Origin: Escherichia phage LH01
Direction: 5' to 3' (one strand)
Sequence record: PP434429
Length of the DNA stretch: 64,000 bases
The notes beneath the pieces were generated by a model. That model did not search any database. It had not been told where the DNA came from and was given only the letters and a program-made list of their open reading frames with translations. A program made the translations under genes and the position numbers. Numbering within the stretch: the stretch's first letter is position 1; every line of letters begins with the position of its first letter. Shown in pieces: positions 3,494 to 50,766 of the stretch.

Positions 3494-4180
3494 TTAGAAG
3501 TCGTGAGTAGAATCGGCTTCCATTGCAATAACATAACTTACTTGAGAGCTTTCAAACTTGGCTGCAACTTTATCACCAGCTCCCCACAACATTACTTTAT
3601 AGTTACCTGGCTGGATTTTCATATTAGCCATATTGATTACGAAGTTAAAGTTGTTAGAACCGTCATAATCGGTAAGAGTCAAAGAATACTTAGGACGAGT
3701 TAGTCCAGAATCTTCAACTTTATTGTAACCATTGATAACAATTTTACCATCTTTATTTGTAATAGCAATTGTATCAATCTGGAGACCACGTGAAACTCGA
3801 AGCAATTGTTGAAGGTCTTCAGCTTTAATTTCAGTAATCACAGAAGCCACTGGGAATTGAATTGGCTTATTAGGAAAAACAATGGTGCTCTTGTCGGCAG
3901 CAGGCCAATAAACTGTGGAACGTGTATCTGCAATTTTAATATTGCCATCAGTGTGCATTGAAATTTCAGCATCATCAGACACTAGACTCAAAATGCTTAA
4001 GAAGCTATTCAAATCATAAAGTGCTACGTCAAAATCAATTTCATCAGAGATATTTGCTTCCGCATAAGTGGTGCCATTAACTGCACGGGTCATAATAAAT
4101 TTACCTTGACTCAGCAGAATACCGGAGTTAATAGAGGCAAAGTTTTTCAGAATAGCGATAGTATCTTTAGACAGTTTCAT
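3494..4180 (-). CDS. 45: Sliding clamp gp45
   Basis: Start moved to the internal ATG (MKLSKDTIAILKNFASINSGI...) by homology to T4 gp45 and an AGGAAA SD; the ORF-track start at 4195 is 5 codons upstream. Confidence 0.9.
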   Translation of the reverse strand: MKLSKDTIAILKNFASINSGILLSQGKFIMTRAVNGTTYAEANISDEIDFDVALYDLNSFLSILSLVSDDAEISMHTDGNIKIADTRSTVYWPAADKSTIVFPNKPIQFPVASVITEIKAEDLQQLLRVSRGLQIDTIAITNKDGKIVINGYNKVEDSGLTRPKYSLTLTDYDGSNNFNFVINMANMKIQPGNYKVMLWGAGDKVAAKFESSQVSYVIAMEADSTHDF

Positions 4181-4222
4181 TTTATTTCCTTTCAAGACAA
4201 TTCAAAGTTTATAACAAATTTA

Positions 4223-4639
4223 TTACGCAGCAACCATCTGCTTTTTAATAGCTTCAGGTAGTGATTCAATATATTCTGGAATTTTAGAAGCAACAATTTC
4301 GCCGGCTGCAATTAATTGTTCGTCGGCATCAACACAGTAGAAATCTTCCAGACGCTCAGAACCATCTTTATCAAGAACGATTTTTCCACCGGCTTCAATA
4401 GAATCTTTATAGTGCTTACGCATCAGATGAATCCACATATCAGATACATCGTTGTCGATAAAACCATAAATCATAAAACGAGTTTCTTGTGGCAAAGATT
4501 GAAGCTTTTTAGCACTCGCGTCATCACAATGCAGGACCCATGCTTTACGAACACGATTATGGTTATGCGGGTTAGCGTCAGTACGGATAGAAGTAACTTT
4601 CAGATCAGCAGCAGTGAAACCTTTAGCAGTAGTAAACAT
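4223..4639 (-). CDS. rpbA: RNA polymerase-binding protein RpbA
   Basis: 138 aa; TTAKGFTAADLKVTSIRTDANPHNHN... matches T4 RpbA; position between 45 and 46. Confidence 0.8.
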   Translation of the reverse strand: MFTTAKGFTAADLKVTSIRTDANPHNHNRVRKAWVLHCDDASAKKLQSLPQETRFMIYGFIDNDVSDMWIHLMRKHYKDSIEAGGKIVLDKDGSERLEDFYCVDADEQLIAAGEIVASKIPEYIESLPEAIKKQMVAA

Positions 4640-23303: not shown

Positions 23304-23564
23304 TTACTTATCGCACTTAGCAACATAATTAGGCATATCACAGAATACGGAGCGTGTAACTACTCGACCCTTTGACCATGCTTCAGTTGCTTGTCCGGCA
23401 GTGCTATTAATATAGCTCGATTTGATATTCTCAATACCCTGAGAATGTGATGCATTTACCGAACCGTTGGAAGGCCCAGAAGACTGGTTACCACCAGCTC
23501 CTGTGGTAGCACCAACAGAGAATGCCATCATTACTGCGAATAAACCAATTGCTAATTTTTTCAT
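23304..23564 (-). CDS. Small secreted protein (signal peptide, C-terminal Cys pair)
   Basis: 86 aa; N-terminus MKKLAIGLFAVMMAFSVGA is signal-peptide-like; Gly/Ser/Asn-rich middle; two cysteines near the C-terminus. Confidence 0.5.
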   Translation of the reverse strand: MKKLAIGLFAVMMAFSVGATTGAGGNQSSGPSNGSVNASHSQGIENIKSSYINSTAGQATEAWSKGRVVTRSVFCDMPNYVAKCDK

Positions 23565-26990: not shown

Positions 26991-27572
26991 TTATAACAAC
27001 CCTGTCAAATCATTCCAATGCTTCCGGCATAATGACACATATCTATCGGTATCACCAATTTCAATTTGACTGCCATCTGTAATTGGAAGTCCGTCTTCCG
27101 TGACTCTAGCTACCATTGTGGCCTTTTTACCGCAATGACAGACACCTTTAAGTTCAACAAGCTTATCGGCAATAGCCATTAATGCTTGAGAACCTTCAAA
27201 TAGATTACCTTTAAAATCTGTTCGTAGTCCATATGCCATTACCGGCACATTGTATACGTCAACAATACGACTAAGTTGATACACCTTTTCAGTAGTTAAG
27301 AACTGAGCTTCGTCAACAAATACACAGTGAATATCCTTTTGTGCTGCAGCCCATTTATAGAATTCAAAGATATCCATGTCTTTTGTAATTATATTGGCAT
27401 CCTGACGAATACCAATACGAGAGACTATTTCACCTTTTGAATCACGAGTATCAATAGCCGGTTTAAGAACTAATACACCCATGCCACGTTCTTTATAGTT
27501 ATGTGCGGCAGTAAGTAATGAAGCAGACTTACCAGCGTTCATAGCGGCATATGTAAAAATTAAACTAGCCAT
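26991..27572 (-). CDS. tk: Thymidine kinase
   Basis: 193 aa as in T4 Tk; P-loop MNAGKSASLL and C-terminal Zn-binding cysteines CHCGKKA...CRKH. Confidence 0.9.
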   Translation of the reverse strand: MASLIFTYAAMNAGKSASLLTAAHNYKERGMGVLVLKPAIDTRDSKGEIVSRIGIRQDANIITKDMDIFEFYKWAAAQKDIHCVFVDEAQFLTTEKVYQLSRIVDVYNVPVMAYGLRTDFKGNLFEGSQALMAIADKLVELKGVCHCGKKATMVARVTEDGLPITDGSQIEIGDTDRYVSLCRKHWNDLTGLL

Positions 27573-27581
27573 AAGAGTCCC

Positions 27582-27764
27582 TTATAGTGAATTCACGTAG
27601 TCAATGAGTTCTTGTTCTTTCCTGTCAAATGATTCCAACAATGCTTGATATTCTTCATCTGTTAAAGGAGCATATTCATCGTACGCATTGGTGGCTGCTT
27701 GCTCATCCAATAGGTCATGGATAAGTTCGAACAGTTTAGTTTTCTCTTCTTTAGTCAATTTCAT
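27582..27764 (-). CDS. Small acidic hypothetical protein
   Basis: 60-aa ORF. Confidence 0.45.
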   Translation of the reverse strand: MKLTKEEKTKLFELIHDLLDEQAATNAYDEYAPLTDEEYQALLESFDRKEQELIDYVNSL

Positions 27765-27988
27765 TTAGGTTCACCTTCTTTAACGAAATCTGGGTAAGGG
27801 TAAAATCCTGAGTAAAACCCTTCACCTTTATGATTGCTACAACCTTTGTTCGAACAGTAACACCAATAATCAAAATCACAGGCCATTTCGTCATTGCATA
27901 GAGCAAAAACTACAGGCCATTCGCATTTTTCGCATTTAGCACCTGTAAGAATTTTTGTTTGACTCATAACCACGTCACCTGCATGCAA
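27761..27988 (-). CDS. Cysteine-rich small protein (possible metal-binding)
   Basis: 75 aa with 9 cysteines, including CEKCEW and CDFDYWCYCSNKGCSNHKG. Confidence 0.45.
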   Translation of the reverse strand: MHAGDVVMSQTKILTGAKCEKCEWPVVFALCNDEMACDFDYWCYCSNKGCSNHKGEGFYSGFYPYPDFVKEGEPK

Positions 27989-28176
27989 TATTCTTCGACA
28001 TGCTTTTTACGACCTTTCTTATCGATAAAGGTGTATTCCATAAAGCGTCCATGATAACGACGTTCAACATCGTGAGGGGTGTTAATAGGACACTTAGTCT
28101 GACGAATTTCTTCCCATTCACGAATAATAACTGCTTTATTCTTTGGGTCATATGGGTGCGGATAGTGTACATTCAT
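27964..28176 (-). CDS. Hypothetical protein
   Basis: Start moved to MNVHYPHPYD (internal Met of track ORF 27964..28191). Confidence 0.45.
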   Translation of the reverse strand: MNVHYPHPYDPKNKAVIIREWEEIRQTKCPINTPHDVERRYHGRFMEYTFIDKKGRKKHVEEYCMQVTWL

Positions 28177-28670
28177 AACAATGGTTCCCAATCAACAATC
28201 ACAATTTCTAGTTTAGTGGAATACGTATCCAGAATCTCTTCGATAATATCCCAGTTTCCACCGCCTATACCTGCACCAATTCTTGGCATGTAAATCACAG
28301 GCTTTGTTATCTTATTCTTTCCGAATTCATTTAATTCTATTATACAATTCATTAAAGCAGAGTACTCAAAATTAGGTCCCGGCTCAAACTGCGTATAAAG
28401 ATTAAAGCAATAAGCTTTATGGGTCTTAAAATATTTTTCATAAACCGAATAAGTCCCGAGTTTAGACTCGTCTCCGAATTCGGTTTGAAGTTTATCGGCT
28501 TCCAGAATTTTTGGATAAGCCTTTGCTAATTGTCCTGCCACACCGGCGCCCATTGTATGAAAACAATTACACCCATGAGCAATATTATTACCTTTAGAAA
28601 ACAGGGCGACAATATCGCCCTTGATATAGTTTTTAATCACTTGCTGCAAGTCCTCTAGTATAAGAGTCAA
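28173..28670 (-). CDS. Macro-domain-like protein (putative ADP-ribose binding/processing)
   Basis: 165 aa; GNNIAHGCNCFHTMGAGVAGQLAKA resembles the macro-domain N-terminal Gly-rich motif and PRIGAGIGGGNW the C-terminal diphosphate-binding loop. Assigned from motifs only. Confidence 0.5.
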   Translation of the reverse strand: MTLILEDLQQVIKNYIKGDIVALFSKGNNIAHGCNCFHTMGAGVAGQLAKAYPKILEADKLQTEFGDESKLGTYSVYEKYFKTHKAYCFNLYTQFEPGPNFEYSALMNCIIELNEFGKNKITKPVIYMPRIGAGIGGGNWDIIEEILDTYSTKLEIVIVDWEPLL

Positions 28671-28980
28671 CTAGGCGGTCCACCATAGAATTGCATGCTG
28701 CCTTATCTTTAGGTTCCGCCACCGAGCATTCTAATATTTGCCATTTTTTATAGTATCTTTTAATTAAGGTAGACGCCTTGAACCTACTAGACGCCCCATC
28801 TTTTTCTCCGTCTTTATACGCATATAACAATTTTTGTGAAAAATCTACTTTACACTCTTGACTTTTACCACAATAATCAGACGCCGTTCTGTTTGTATAC
28901 TCCGTTACATCAGTATATGTAGTATTAGCAAGAGCGTTAAATGAAACCAAGCCAACTATTAAAGCTAACATTTTGGTCAT
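28633..28980 (-). CDS. Secreted Cys-containing protein (signal peptide)
   Basis: 115 aa; N-terminus MTKMLALIVGLVSFNALA; four cysteines; directly downstream of the secreted transglycosylase gene. Confidence 0.5.
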   Translation of the reverse strand: MTKMLALIVGLVSFNALANTTYTDVTEYTNRTASDYCGKSQECKVDFSQKLLYAYKDGEKDGASSRFKASTLIKRYYKKWQILECSVAEPKDKAACNSMVDRLVDSYTRGLAASD

Positions 28981-29519
28981 TCTTTTATTTCCAGTAGTTT
29001 ATTTGATTTAAGGTAATTAGCCTTTTCTAGGACTTCAGAAGCATATTTACTTCCAGCACCTGTCTTCCATCCCGCATTATATGAGGATACAGCTTTTCTT
29101 ATATCCCCGTTATGTATATTTAACCAATAAGAAAATTCGATATAAGCCCATCTGGCTGAATTAGACCGCTTAGATAGCATTTTCTTAATTTGGGCATCAG
29201 TCATATTATAACCAAGCTGGTTAATTCTTGCCCTCATTGTCGGTAGATAATTTTGGAACATTCCATACGCATGGTGACCTTTCTTATCTTTAAGATTAAT
29301 ACCGGCAGATGATTCCTGCCATAGTATTGCGGCCATTATGTATCCAAGTCCTTTCTTATGCATATTTTCATGCGTTTTAAATTTTCCATCCTTAGAAAAC
29401 TGTTCCCCAAACTGATAAGCATAATTCAAGTTATCGAGTTGGACATTACTAAAAGTATGCTCGGAGCTATGTGCTGATAACGAAAGAGCAAATAGACCAG
29501 CGAGTAGTGCTTTTCTCAT
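28977..29519 (-). CDS. Secreted lytic transglycosylase (SLT-domain) protein
   Basis: 180 aa; signal peptide MRKALLAGLFALSLSAHS; SLT motifs WQESSAG (catalytic Glu-Ser), YGMFQ and YNAGW present. Confidence 0.6.
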   Translation of the reverse strand: MRKALLAGLFALSLSAHSSEHTFSNVQLDNLNYAYQFGEQFSKDGKFKTHENMHKKGLGYIMAAILWQESSAGINLKDKKGHHAYGMFQNYLPTMRARINQLGYNMTDAQIKKMLSKRSNSARWAYIEFSYWLNIHNGDIRKAVSSYNAGWKTGAGSKYASEVLEKANYLKSNKLLEIKE

Positions 29520-29527
29520 GTTTACCT

Positions 29528-29986
29528 CTAGATTTTAATCACTGCTTTAGAAGCTTTTCCTGGTAGCCGTTTACTGTTAATAATAGCCATTCTGCATTGA
29601 AGAGTCTTCATTTTGAATGCTGGATTTTCGCGACAAACTGTAAGTCCTAACCAAAGATTTCCATCAGTTATTTCTAAACGGCCTGGGCGATATTCGACAC
29701 CTTCGACAAAATCTTCATCAACATCTGGACGTGCCGGCATTGATAAAAATTCTGCAACTTCTTTAACATGATTTTTTACTTTATGAAATAATTCAAAAAC
29801 GTAATTCTCATCTATTTCTCTCTGGATGGCACGATCTAAGAGATGTTGAGAATACTTGATATGAAAGCCTGGTAGTCCAAGAGACTTTGCAGCATCTTTT
29901 ATACCGGCATTTATTTTGCGGAACTCCGTTTCAAAGATTCGACGGAGTTTATTACGGCGGATAAAAACTTCCGAATTGATAGTCAT
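29528..29986 (-). CDS. regB: Endoribonuclease RegB
   Basis: Start at MTINSEVFIRRNKLRR; near-identical to T4 RegB through ...GRLEITDGNLWLG.TVC...LQCRMAIINS.RLPGKASKAVIK. Confidence 0.85.
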   Translation of the reverse strand: MTINSEVFIRRNKLRRIFETEFRKINAGIKDAAKSLGLPGFHIKYSQHLLDRAIQREIDENYVFELFHKVKNHVKEVAEFLSMPARPDVDEDFVEGVEYRPGRLEITDGNLWLGLTVCRENPAFKMKTLQCRMAIINSKRLPGKASKAVIKI

Positions 29987-30002
29987 TTTGATTTCTCCTC
30001 TA

Positions 30003-30045
30003 GTTGACAAGTCTATAGTAACACAACTAGAGGAGAAGTAAACTA
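30003..30045 (-). promoter_or_regulatory. Early-promoter-like cassette (GTTTAC...TATAG) upstream of regB
   Basis: Plus strand tagttgacaagtctatagtaacacaactagaggagaagtaaac; minus strand carries GTTTAC and a TATAG-type -10. Coordinates approximate. Confidence 0.4.
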
Positions 30046-30342
30046 CTCTTTGAAAGGAATTAACTTTTTAACTGCTTTAGATACTTCGTCACGAACCTGA
30101 TGGAAGTTCTTGAGCTGTTCAAGGCGTTGTTCGTAATACGCAATCTCATCTTCTTCAAGACAATCGTCAGCGTCTTCTTTCAGATATGCCTTGTACTCAT
30201 TAAAGAGGACCCATAGGCGGTTCTCAAAGTCATCAAGGCTTTGAATTTTCTTGTGCTTCGGAACAAGGCCAAAAGGATTGCTTTCAGTTATGCGTCTAGA
30301 CGCTTCATAATGAGTTCCAAAGCCTGATAGGATTTGAGCCAT
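30043..30342 (-). CDS. Hypothetical protein
   Basis: Start moved to [13 protein letters not shown] (internal Met of track ORF 30043..30384). Confidence 0.45.
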
Positions 30343-30587
30343 TAGTATTTTTCCTCTGGTTGAAATACCGCACGACAAGCCCACATACTAGCTTCCTTTA
30401 GGCGTTCTTTAGCACAGTTCAATTGGGACAAAGCTGTCAAAGCTTCAGGAGTATTCGCAGACAACGCTTCTTCCGCCAAGGCATCGAAAATAAGCCCTAA
30501 TCGAACTTCTGCATCTTTAATAGCGTTCACTTTACCGATTTTATCATCGGTATGCGGCTTGTAGCCTTTGATGTCTTCAATCGACAT
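30342..30587 (-). CDS. Hypothetical protein
   Basis: Start moved to [15 protein letters not shown] to avoid a long overlap with the upstream gene. Confidence 0.4.
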
Positions 30588-30801
30588 AAGGAATTTCCTC
30601 ATCGGTGGCAAGGTCATATTCGACCAATTGGATAGGCTCATTAATACCATATCCACGTACAGTGATATCAGTTGCCGGATAGTTTCCAGTAATATCACCC
30701 ATTCTAAATGCTTCAATGAATGATTGCTCGCCTGAGCAACTAAACCAGGCGGCAAAACATTTTAAAACATCTTCAGACCCTTCTATAATCAATTTAGCCA
30801 T
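30577..30801 (-). CDS. Hypothetical acidic protein
   Basis: 74-aa ORF. Confidence 0.45.
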   Translation of the reverse strand: MAKLIIEGSEDVLKCFAAWFSCSGEQSFIEAFRMGDITGNYPATDITVRGYGINEPIQLVEYDLATDEEIPYVD

Positions 30802-31163
30802 TATAGACTCTCAGTAAAGGTACGAGCGATAACGTCACGCTGCTGTTCCGGAGTCAGAGAGTTAAAGCGAACTGCATAACCGGATACACGGATGGTCAAC
30901 TGCGGATATTTTTCTGGATGCTTAACTGCATCTTCCAGAGTTTCACGACGCAGAACATTAACGTTCAGGTGTTGACCACCTTCAATTTTAACTTTAGGTT
31001 GATGTTCAATTTCAATTTCACGGGCATTCAAACCGTAGAAAATTTCCGGGTCTACAATAGCGTCTTCTTTAAAAGTCTTAGAGACAATAATCCGGGCTTG
31101 AGTACCGTCTTCAAAATAAATAGTGCCTTTATGTGCACCTTCAAGAATTTGATATGCTTTCAT
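30801..31163 (-). CDS. Autonomous glycyl-radical cofactor (GrcA/YfiD-like)
   Basis: 120 aa; C-terminal glycyl-radical fingerprint [26 protein letters not shown], as in pyruvate formate-lyase C-terminus and GrcA. Confidence 0.8.
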
Positions 31164-32996: not shown

Positions 32997-33293
32997 CTAT
33001 TTTTCTGAAGCGCCTGAAATATATTTTTCAAGACGTTGTTTCATCAGCGAGCCGTTCTTAGCGATTTCTTCTGGTTTATCGCACATACGCAACAAGGCTT
33101 CAAGCTTAGCGATATCGCTGGTACGTTCAAATTTGCGAGTATCTATCTTACTAGCAAGTTCAGAAATACGTGCTAATAGACTTTCAGCTTCAACCAAAGC
33201 TGCACCTAGCTTAGTTGCAAATGTGTCAGTAGCTTCGTTAAGAATAGATTCTGATAAAAATTCACTATATGTTTTCATATATACGCTTTCCAA
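32997..33293 (-). CDS. Internal-protein-like (N-terminus [10 protein letters not shown])
   Basis: 98 aa; capsid-targeting-sequence-like N-terminus; helical charged body. Confidence 0.55.
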
Positions 33294-33763
33294 GTTCCTG
33301 TTTTAAATGTTGAGATTACGCGTTTCGCGCGATTAGGTGTCTGACGATACCATTTAGATTGAGCTAGATTTACTGCCGCTTCATCCCAACGTTTCTGTTT
33401 AAGCATACGAAGAGAATTAGTAAAACCGGCGACTCCTGCTACACCCATTTGGAAGACCATATTGACCAATGCACACCGACGAACTGCATCTAAAGAATCA
33501 TATACCGGTTTAAGTTTAGCATTACCCAAGATTCCGCGGACAGCTTTATCAACGTCTTCATTAAATAGCTTTTCAGCCTCATCAAGGGTAATTGTACCGT
33601 TGCATTTACGACCGATCATTCTGTCAAGTTCAGCTTTAGCTACGGCTAAAGACGGGTTCTTTGTTACTAAATGGCCTATGCCAATCGTCCAAAAGCCTTC
33701 AGTGTCTTTGTATAAAGTCAGTCTAAGACCTTCGTCATTACGAAGCATTTCAAATATATTCAT
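33275..33763 (-). CDS. e: Endolysin (T4 lysozyme, gene e)
   Basis: Start at [33 protein letters not shown]; near-identical to T4 lysozyme, including catalytic Glu11/Asp20/Thr26 positions. Confidence 0.9.
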
Positions 33764-49033: not shown

Positions 49034-50766
49034 TGGAAATGATTAGTAGTAGCCTTAATTGGTTCGTTGGTGTTGTTGAAGACAGAATGGACCCATTAAA
49101 ACAAGGGCGAGTTCGAGTTCGAGTCGTTGGTCTTCATCCGGCACAGAGAGCACAAGGTGATGTACAAGGTATTCCTACAGAAAAACTTCCATGGATGACT
49201 GTTATTCAACCTATTACGTCTGCATCAATGTCAGGTATTGGCGGTTCTGTTACAGGTCCTGTTGAAGGAACTCGAGTATATGGTCATTTCTTAGACAAAT
49301 GGAAAACAAACGGGATTGTACTTGGTACATATGGCGGAATTGTACGTGAAAAGCCTAATAGACTTGAAGGTTTTTCAGACCCGACAGGTCAGTATCCGCG
49401 ACGTTTAGGTAATGATACGAACGTATTAAACCAAGGTGGTGAAGCTGGTTATTATTCGAACTCTAACGTAATTCAAGATAACAACTTGGATTATGGTATA
49501 AACCCAGATGATACAGATTTAGCAAATATTCCAGAAGATGATGACCCTAATTTTACAATAACGGAAATGTTACGTCGTGACGAAGGACTTCGTGATAAAG
49601 TGTATTGGGACCATCTCGGGTATCCTACAGTAGGTATTGGACACCTTATCGTAATGGAAAAGACCCGAGATATGTCTCGAATTAATAAATTGTTATCTGA
49701 TCAAGTAGGGCGTGAAGTAACAGGAAATCCGGGAACTATTACATTAGAAGAAGCAACAGCGTTATTTGAGAAGGACCTTGCTAAGATGCAGAAAGATATT
49801 CGTTCTAATTCTAAAGTAGGTCCTGTTTATGCTAAAATGAACAGATCTCGTCAAATGGCATTAGAAAACATGTGCTTCCAAATGGGTGTTGGTGGTGTAG
49901 CAAAATTCAATACTATGCTTAAAGCAATGGCCACAGGCGATTGGAAAACTGCATACAAATCTGGACGCGATTCATTATGGTTCCAACAGACTAAAGGACG
50001 CGCTTCACGTGTAACAACAATTATTTTAACCGGTAACATGGAATCATATGGTGTTCCTGTTAAAACGCCGCCTTCACCAGGAGTTGGTGCCGATTTAGTT
50101 ACTAGAAATACCGATCCAGAAGACCCGGCTGGTCCTCCTGTTCCATTAGATTCACGTATCCTTTTTAAAGAACCGGAATCAAGTTATCGTGGTGAGTATC
50201 CATACGTTCATGCTATGGAAACAGAAAGTGGTCATATCCAAGAGTTTGACGATACTCCAGGTAATGAACGTTATCGCTTAGTTCATCCAACAGGGTCATA
50301 TGAGGAAGTTTCTCCATCCGGTCGTCGTACTCGTAAAACTGTAGAAGACCTTTTTGACATCACTAATGGTGATGGGAACTTCTTGATTTCTGGTGATAAG
50401 CTTGTTAACGTTGGTGCTAATGAAATATATTATAACATGGCAGACCGCCTCCATCAAATAGATGGCAATGACACAATCTTTATTCGTGGTAACCAAACTA
50501 AAACTGTTGAAGGCGATGGAACTCTTTACGTTAAGGGTAATATCAAAATAGTTGTTGACGGAAATGCAGATATTCTTGTTAAAGGTGATGCTAAAACTCA
50601 GGTTGAAGGGAATCATGATTACACCGTCAACGGAAACGTTAAATGGACTGTTAATGGTAATGTTGATATGACTGTTGCTGGGGAATGGGCAGAAACAATG
50701 TCCACAATGAGCTCAGTAGCTTCAGGACAATACACTGTTGACGGATCTCGTATTGATATTGGGTAA
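49033..50766 (+). CDS. 5: Baseplate hub and tail lysozyme gp5
   Basis: 577 aa; central T4-lysozyme-like domain (DEGLRDKVYWDHLGYPTVGIGHL) and C-terminal VxGxxxxx beta-helix repeats. Confidence 0.9.
   Translation: MEMISSSLNWFVGVVEDRMDPLKQGRVRVRVVGLHPAQRAQGDVQGIPTEKLPWMTVIQPITSASMSGIGGSVTGPVEGTRVYGHFLDKWKTNGIVLGTYGGIVREKPNRLEGFSDPTGQYPRRLGNDTNVLNQGGEAGYYSNSNVIQDNNLDYGINPDDTDLANIPEDDDPNFTITEMLRRDEGLRDKVYWDHLGYPTVGIGHLIVMEKTRDMSRINKLLSDQVGREVTGNPGTITLEEATALFEKDLAKMQKDIRSNSKVGPVYAKMNRSRQMALENMCFQMGVGGVAKFNTMLKAMATGDWKTAYKSGRDSLWFQQTKGRASRVTTIILTGNMESYGVPVKTPPSPGVGADLVTRNTDPEDPAGPPVPLDSRILFKEPESSYRGEYPYVHAMETESGHIQEFDDTPGNERYRLVHPTGSYEEVSPSGRRTRKTVEDLFDITNGDGNFLISGDKLVNVGANEIYYNMADRLHQIDGNDTIFIRGNQTKTVEGDGTLYVKGNIKIVVDGNADILVKGDAKTQVEGNHDYTVNGNVKWTVNGNVDMTVAGEWAETMSTMSSVASGQYTVDGSRIDIG

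Follow-up and report, generated by a model that had tools for sequence, protein, structure and literature searches.

The stretch analysed here, called the window, comprises 64,000 nucleotides of Escherichia phage LH01 (sequence record PP434429), and our subject is three tightly packed open reading frames (ORFs) at 28173-29519 on its minus strand, which are orthologues of the T4 genes tk.4, vs and vs.1. The best explanation of this region, to which we assign a probability of roughly 60%, is that it combines a macro-domain gene, tk.4 (adfM), with a gene pair whose products, Vs.1 and Vs, would work together in the periplasm. Its three genes would be consecutive early genes in a phage of the T4 type and would serve two unrelated jobs. 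Tk.4/AdfM, a stand-alone cytoplasmic macro domain assigned to the TARG1/DarG/SCO6735 class, would most likely remove the ADP-ribose attached by the host toxin DarT2 to thymidines in phage DNA, thereby defeating the DarTG2 defence. Vs.1, a small, basic protein with a single domain, would reach the periplasm by means of a Sec signal peptide and there, as a lytic transglycosylase of the GH23/SLT type with catalytic Glu69, cut or remodel the host peptidoglycan well before lysis by holin and endolysin. Vs would be translated by coupling from the vs.1 mRNA, likewise exported and, as a four-helix bundle stapled by two disulfides, would regulate or target Vs.1 in the periplasm as its partner, most likely as a restraint on it. 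The annotation of the Vs family as 'valyl-tRNA synthetase modifier' would then reflect a mis-assigned genetic locus or a secondary effect.

The window has a G+C content of ~37% and shares 96-98% nucleotide identity with published Mosigvirus-type T4-like coliphages, and is by this measure itself the DNA of such a phage. Over their full length, Tk.4, Vs and Vs.1 are 85%, 67% and 83% identical in amino-acid sequence to their T4 counterparts. In the record of a Mosigvirus relative, the matching stretch is annotated as tk, Tk.2, RB32ORF111c, tk.3, Tk.4, vs, Vs.1, regB and Vs.3, the gene order also found in T4, and in the window the next gene past the trio (29528-30010) encodes RegB (Pfam E-value 4.9e-69). 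The PHROG matches of the macro, 115-residue and 180-residue ORFs (E-values of 7e-67, 5e-35 and 9e-67), together with a Pfam Macro match and the result of a signal-peptide rule, both described below, are far beyond chance. The original prediction, made from the DNA letters alone, had given the coordinates, the minus-strand ORFs and their motifs correctly; it had not recognised the genes as tk.4, vs and vs.1, nor its small cysteine-containing protein as the annotated 'valyl-tRNA synthetase modifier'. All three are already known, annotated T4-type genes, and the macro-domain idea, while right, is published. The remaining point of interest is the localisation paradox of Vs, together with a predicted early periplasmic transglycosylase.

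Read along the minus strand, vs.1 (28977-29519) encodes the precursor of a predicted exported GH23/SLT-like lytic transglycosylase of 180 amino acids (aa), and vs (28633-28980) the 115-aa precursor of a predicted exported four-helix-bundle protein; the stop of the former and the start of the latter overlap in the tetranucleotide ATGA (28977-28980), an arrangement indicative of translational coupling. The vs/tk.4 junction is also a stop-start overlap, GTGATTAA, where tk.4 overlaps the vs stop by 8 nt. The third gene, tk.4/adfM (28173-28640, minus strand), encodes a stand-alone macro domain and was first listed as a 165-aa ORF from an upstream TTG (28173-28670, minus strand), the length given in the original prediction. 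Because homologues including T4 Tk.4 (155 aa) align only from residue 11 of that reading, and because a GTG at 28640 sits 10 nt after the Shine-Dalgarno sequence AGAGGA, we place the start at this GTG and not at the TTG, which yields a protein of 155 aa. About 20 nt inside tk.4 past the GTG, at 28603-28621 (minus strand), a terminator-like hairpin, AGGGCGATATTGTCGCCCT, is followed by GTTTTCT; it could be due to chance or could attenuate tk.4 expression relative to vs. A promoter and terminator scan of 27500-31000 returned sites no commoner than in shuffled sequence and is therefore uninformative on transcription units.

The 180-aa protein Vs.1 matches phrog_600 and carries the motifs WQESS, YGMFQN and SYNAG, and residues E69, S71, G86, Q89, N90, Y147, N148, G150 and Y159 are invariant in 46/46 diverse homologues. 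Judged by alignment, they correspond to the ES, GLMQ-like and AYNxG motifs known from family-1 lytic transglycosylases, with Glu69 (W-Q-E-S-S; codon at 29313-29315, minus strand) as the predicted catalytic acid. The score against the Pfam SLT profile (18.8 bits, E-value 0.0012) is just below the cut-off of 21.3, and some homologues have a precomputed PF01464 match. The AlphaFold model reaches a predicted local distance difference test (pLDDT) score of 90, with a detached N-terminal helix (~64 over the first 20 residues), and its top Foldseek matches in the PDB are a GH23 chitinase, MltD, Slt, the phi6 lysin P5 and T7 gp16, all of them GH23 proteins (probability ~1.0, TM score 0.47-0.52, E-value only ~0.01); a PDB sequence search gave no matches. 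The SLT domain named in the original prediction thus holds up in its invariant motifs and predicted fold, and falls short in its Pfam score. The similarity to SLT was published in 2003-2006, and the sub-threshold score of the family was noted in 2006.

Residues 1-18 of Vs.1 (29466-29519, minus strand; MRKALLAGLFALSLSAHS, followed by SE) form a predicted Sec signal peptide. Signal peptides were called by a simple heuristic rule, which is passed by six of the 160 ATG-initiated ORFs of at least 60 aa in the window; four of the six are real genes, namely those of rI, Vs, Vs.1 and a phrog_2243 protein. K/R followed by a hydrophobic run and a small-x-small site is seen in 44 of the 46 Vs.1 homologues, the two exceptions being mis-called starts. 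The mature protein is basic, with an isoelectric point of ~9.6. Taken together, sequence and model indicate that Vs.1 is probably a divergent, exported and active lytic transglycosylase. On its function, the accessible literature contains only the 2006 note of SLT similarity, and in the literature searched there is no assay of MurNAc-GlcNAc cleavage with 1,6-anhydro-MurNAc products by Vs.1. The endolysin gene e (33281-33763, minus strand) and the gp5 lysozyme domain (49558-50049, plus strand), from which this enzyme had been set apart in the original prediction, are indeed also present in the window. Several public labels of Vs.1 are wrong ('endoribonuclease', 'RegB', 'C-type lysozyme/alpha-lactalbumin family protein'), and an Ackermannviridae Vs.1-like protein is mis-annotated as 'putative RegB protein'.

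The 115-aa protein is the orthologue of T4 Vs (67% identity, E-value 7e-57; phrog_1256, 5e-35) and its first 18 residues (28927-28980, minus strand; MTKMLALIVGLVSFNALA, followed by NT) are predicted to form a Sec signal peptide by heuristic hydrophobicity and an AXA rule. It contains four cysteines, C37, C43, C85 and C96, as had been anticipated, in the conserved pairs C37/C43 and C85/C96. The AlphaFold model (pLDDT 84) folds as a four-helix bundle with helices 16-37, 41-63, 69-85 and 90-114, in which each cysteine pair flanks the loop of a helical hairpin and residues 1-17 are disordered (pLDDT below 50). All 55 distinct full-length family members keep the four cysteines and two glycines, and all 55 start with an export signal by the heuristic; in one lineage this is a lipoprotein signal, LSGC. 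Together with the homologues of Vs.1, they bear out the signal peptides proposed for both proteins as conserved and of Sec type, as far as the rule can tell. The lipobox lineage comprises loci L036-L038, L061 (about 4049-4375) and L040 of the set described below; in L040 a frameshift splits vs into two ORFs.

An exhaustive HMMER search with the single Vs sequence found only seven proteins and no cellular relatives, and a PDB sequence search gave no matches. With the Vs model, Foldseek returned from the PDB only non-specific helical proteins (50 matches listed, all with E-values of at least 0.7 and TM scores of at most 0.5), and the BFVD viral structure library only Vs relatives. Neither Ivy, MliC, PliC nor Spackle is among the 50 PDB matches listed, and Spackle is absent from the BFVD result. 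We also considered Vs as an inhibitor resembling one of these proteins, the folds against which it had been proposed to compare it, and ruled this out for lack, in the matches listed, of fold similarity to the all-helical Vs.

The linkage between the two genes was analysed in 74 loci (70 IMG/VR loci, three phage records and the window), all of which encode a Vs.1 relative. The ORFs right after vs.1 in a Klebsiella Jiaodavirus and an Acinetobacter Hadassahvirus are laid out like Vs, with a signal peptide, CX5C, CX8C and the C-terminal motif Y-x-x-x-L-x-x-Y-x-x-G-L; with these ORFs of Klebsiella and Acinetobacter phages a broader Vs profile was built. A Vs-like ORF accompanies vs.1 in 67/74 loci across Tevenvirinae and Twarogvirinae, and in 59 of 68 cases its start is placed -8 to +7 nt relative to the vs.1 stop; phages of 175-180 kb form a group in which the distance downstream is 0.5-1.2 kb. 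This linkage, together with the export signals and invariant cysteines of the 55 Vs proteins, was not found in the accessible literature. The conserved, translationally coupled arrangement supports, at the level of gene order, Vs as a partner of the transglycosylase, a role that had been suggested for the small cysteine-containing protein. In 22 loci, a phrog_4957 protein of 130-140 aa with a signal peptide is encoded between vs and tk.4 (for example L003:3309-3707 and L004:3282-3707), and in an Acinetobacter phage further exported or membrane proteins and rI follow it. Since phrog_4957, these proteins and rI cluster there, the neighbourhood looks like an island of envelope-directed genes.

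Such an island would also suit another explanation, in which Vs.1 is an auxiliary muralytic enzyme of lysis or entry that acts alone, while Vs, also periplasmic, has nothing to do with it (a superinfection or envelope factor, for instance) and lies next to it together with other exported proteins such as rI and phrog_4957. Ackermannviridae, Felixounavirus, Aeromonas phages and jumbo relatives do have Vs.1-like enzymes but no Vs, which is therefore not obligatory for Vs.1. The Vs.1-like proteins of Ackermannviridae and Felixounavirus (L076:2899-3513 and L077:4408-4956) have signal peptides, cysteines of their own and a C-terminal extension, and no Vs-like neighbour. Against a solitary Vs.1 speak the start/stop overlap in 59/68 cases over deep divergence and, as detailed next, the similar fitness cost of losing vs or vs.1 beside neutral neighbours; we regard it as improbable.

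Fitness effects were taken from T4 transposon data, namely the LB versus M9 table of a 2025 preprint (bioRxiv 10.1101/2025.11.20.689424), as mean read counts. Insertions in vs gave 27 reads in LB and 5.0 in M9 (log2 fold change -2.19, adjusted p 0) and those in vs.1 gave 23 and 11.9 (-0.87, adjusted p 0.155), while regB (179 and 403; +1.17, adjusted p 0.80), tk.4 (290 and 275; -0.07, adjusted p 1.0) and vs.3 (652 and 626; -0.06, adjusted p 1.0) showed no such depletion. Already in LB, the counts of vs and vs.1 insertions are 5- to 25-fold below those of the neighbours regB, tk.4 and vs.3. A fitness cost is thus common to vs and vs.1 and is absent from their neighbours. An insertion in vs.1 probably also lowers vs translation. 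The loss of vs is worse than that of vs.1, and this is the pattern expected if Vs restrains Vs.1; the difference is small.

Several points weigh against a joint periplasmic role of Vs and Vs.1. Export of both proteins depends on the heuristic and on its conservation, the Vs model was built on a shallow alignment of six sequences, Vs.1 stays below the Pfam gathering score with Foldseek E-values of only ~0.01, its relatives without Vs were mentioned above, and polarity on vs could account for what the transposon data show for vs.1. In addition, classical biochemistry, as cited in later work, assigns the vs product to binding the cytoplasmic valyl-tRNA synthetase (ValRS), and the minimal-medium phenotype of T4 vs has been interpreted via ValRS.

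In line with this long-standing biochemical and genetic assignment, Vs could be a cytoplasmic 10-kDa peptide that binds the host ValRS, with an N-terminus not used for export or a pool that is only partly exported, and with a position that is inherited gene order. The defect of a T4 vs deletion is specific to minimal medium, a condition under which the supply of amino acids and translation become limiting. The calculated mass of mature Vs, ~10.9 kDa, would fit the modifier, reportedly a 10-kDa peptide, but this size would suit the small ORFs vs.3 and vs.4 equally well. A cytoplasmic location is not what the protein's sequence suggests. The conserved export signal, canonical in all 55 distinct members and a lipoprotein signal in one lineage, the four invariant cysteines at hairpin-stapling positions, typical of oxidising compartments, and the conserved coupling to an exported enzyme, kept across subfamilies, make binding to a cytoplasmic synthetase hard to reconcile with Vs. 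N-terminally His-tagged T4 Vs was insoluble in the cytoplasm, and the lack of cellular relatives in the exhaustive search likewise speaks against this assignment. We therefore hold it to be rather unlikely, if still the strongest competitor. The accessible literature contains no discussion of Vs export or of its conflict with a role on ValRS. Public records frequently carry 'valyl-tRNA synthetase', the name of the enzyme itself, as the label of Vs.

The boldest reading, to which we give somewhat less than even odds, is that Vs really is an exported, disulfide-bonded four-helix-bundle partner, and probably a regulator, of Vs.1, that the two form a conserved early periplasmic wall-remodelling module of T4-like phages, and that the ValRS label is mis-assigned or describes a secondary or in-extract effect. 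The export signals, folds, catalytic motifs and linkage of the two genes can be read from sequences and predictions; enzymatic activity of Vs.1, a physical Vs-Vs.1 interaction and the direction of regulation are inferred. The functional label of Vs is 50 years old and appears to be at odds with the protein's own sequence, and 'valyl-tRNA synthetase modifier' stands in hundreds of phage genomes, so that resolving its role would correct a widely propagated annotation. Resolving Vs and Vs.1 would also open a tractable question: for what reason might T4-like phages remodel the wall of the host so far ahead of lysis, and why should this matter most in minimal medium?

The macro protein carries GNNIAHGCNCFHTMGAGVAG and PRIGAGIGGGNW; its Gly-rich loops read GAGVAG and IGAGIGGG, and Gln84 stands within the motif YTQ. 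The macro domain that had been proposed from these loops is confirmed by Pfam Macro (PF01661), with an E-value of 1.7e-6 and 28.4 bits against a cut-off of 22 over profile positions 2-117 of 118; the likeness of tk.4 to A1pp/macro domains had been pointed out as early as 2006. Sequence matches in the PDB are BT1257 (4.5e-11), yeast Poa1p (1.5e-8), SCO6735 (7e-5) and, at ~1e-3, TARG1 and DarG, and the loops GAGVAG and PRIGAGIGGGNW align with the ADP-ribose-diphosphate loops of BT1257, SCO6735 and TARG1. DarG models match over the macro part only (PADLOC 1.4e-8, NCBIfam 1.8e-7); in the model with 338 positions the match spans 4-146 and scores 30.8 bits against a cut-off of 250. Tk.4 ends after the macro domain and its neighbours are vs and tk.3, so that it has neither the C-terminal DarT-binding domain of DarG nor an adjacent darT.

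The catalytic Lys of this class (TARG1 K84, DarG K80) is harder to place. BLAST aligns a Lys of Tk.4 with it at the cost of a 14-residue gap, whereas a manual, near-gapless register, itself uncertain, puts Gln84 of the conserved YTQ at this site, as in SCO6735 with Gln85; in both registers TARG1 Asp125 is aligned to a Gly of Tk.4. A fragment search did not align SCO6735 with Tk.4 across the catalytic-Lys site. By alignment, Gln84 probably replaces the catalytic Lys of TARG1 and DarG in Tk.4. In SCO6735, where Gln stands in place of the Lys, thymidine-linked ADP-ribose is cleaved and the mutant Q85A is inactive.

Earlier work predicted that T4 must carry an anti-DarTG2 factor. T4 tk.4 was subsequently reported as the single significant gene needed on a DarTG2 host, and a clean tk.4 knockout as DarTG2-sensitive, which led to the new name adfM (bioRxiv 10.1101/2025.11.20.689424). 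The function of Tk.4 as an anti-DarTG2 factor is thus already published for T4, and the reversal of ADP-ribosylation envisaged in the original prediction has the backing of T4 genetics. The defeat of DarTG2 has been demonstrated genetically for the T4 orthologue; the enzymatic step would be de-ADP-ribosylation, for the T4 protein and the window protein alike. The apparent absence of the DarG/TARG1 catalytic Lys, in an ambiguous register, counts against the proposed activity.

Tk.4 might instead be a Poa1p-like ADP-ribose-1''-phosphate phosphatase or an O-acetyl-ADP-ribose deacetylase, acting on small NAD-derived metabolites instead of DNA. Database labels such as 'phosphatase' or 'A1pp', Poa1p among the best PDB sequence matches and the TARG1 catalytic Lys and Asp that are not evident in Tk.4 would agree with such an enzyme, which we consider still less probable than a solitary Vs.1: loss of tk.4 sensitises T4 specifically to DarTG2, the screen gave no other significant gene, DarG models match, and ADP-ribosyl-thymidine is cleaved by SCO6735, whose catalytic position holds a Gln. 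Removal of ADP-ribose from DNA is the activity we favour for Tk.4.

The position of tk.4 next to the Vs.1-Vs pair raises the question of whether macro protein, Vs and Vs.1 form one system, for instance for the control of cell-wall enzymes by ADP-ribosylation. A Tk.4-like gene is found at most 3.5 kb from vs.1 in 58/74 loci, jumbo relatives included, and in a Felixounavirus the two are ~3 kb apart. The adjacency is loose: tk.4 adjoins vs in 29 loci, is separated from it by another exported-protein gene in 22 and is absent in 15. Tk.4 has no export signal while Vs and Vs.1 are predicted to be exported, and the knockouts differ, with only DarTG2 sensitivity for tk.4 and a medium-dependent fitness cost for vs and vs.1. 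A single system was ruled out on these grounds of separate compartments, loose adjacency and differing phenotypes, its probability being close to negligible; no evidence links the cytoplasmic macro protein in function to the two exported proteins, and we treat the proximity of tk.4 to vs.1 as inherited gene order.

Three further features of the window were noted. The phrog_2243 protein (23304-23564, minus strand; 86 aa) has a clear signal peptide, beginning MKKLAIGLFAVMMAFS, and a Gly/Ser/Asn-rich mature part with two cysteines. At 27761-27988 (minus strand), a small Cys-rich protein of phrog_2306 with 9 Cys in 75 aa from the listed TTG (CEKCEW...C...C..C.C...C) corresponds to RB32ORF111c of the relative, occupies the place of T4 tk.1 and is probably zinc-binding. 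The orthologue of vs.6 (30801-31163, minus strand) carries the C-terminal glycyl-radical motif RVSGYAVRF, is GrcA-like in this respect, and has been known for this motif since 2006.

Compared with known systems, the window Tk.4 is closest to T4 Tk.4/AdfM, its orthologue over 155/155 residues and in the same position after vs, from which it differs in the second Gly loop by GGG in place of GKG. With DarG, TARG1 and SCO6735 it shares, by sequence, the macro fold class (ALC1-like) and the expected substrate, ADP-ribosyl-thymidine, and with SCO6735 probably also a Gln at the catalytic position. It differs from DarG as an orphan phage gene outside any toxin-antitoxin pair, lacking the C-terminal DarT-binding domain, and from TARG1 by the missing equivalents of Lys84 and Asp125, as far as the ambiguous register allows. 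The window Vs matches T4 Vs (PHROG 1256, Pfam PF26829) as an orthologue of the same length and position, whereas its sequence features point to the periplasm, a location unanticipated by the family name. Ivy, MliC/PliC and T4 Spackle are, like Vs, small and exported, contain Cys and are conceivable modulators of a muralytic enzyme; in fold and sequence they differ from it, and Ivy and MliC/PliC are beta-rich. Vs.1 would share the GH23 lysozyme-like fold and the ES, GLMQ-like and AYNxG motifs with Slt70, MltD, MltE, phi6 P5 and T7 gp16. It is set apart from the whole group, the secretion-system enzymes named below included, by its strong divergence, by a conserved N-terminal extension of its own (residues 20-58) and by its early synthesis in a lytic phage equipped with both an endolysin and a virion lysozyme. 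As a small, specialised, exported lytic transglycosylase, it further resembles the secretion-system enzymes VirB1, EtgA and IpgF. VirB1 and EtgA are small, single-domain and Sec-exported, and enzymes of the EtgA type are controlled by a partner protein.

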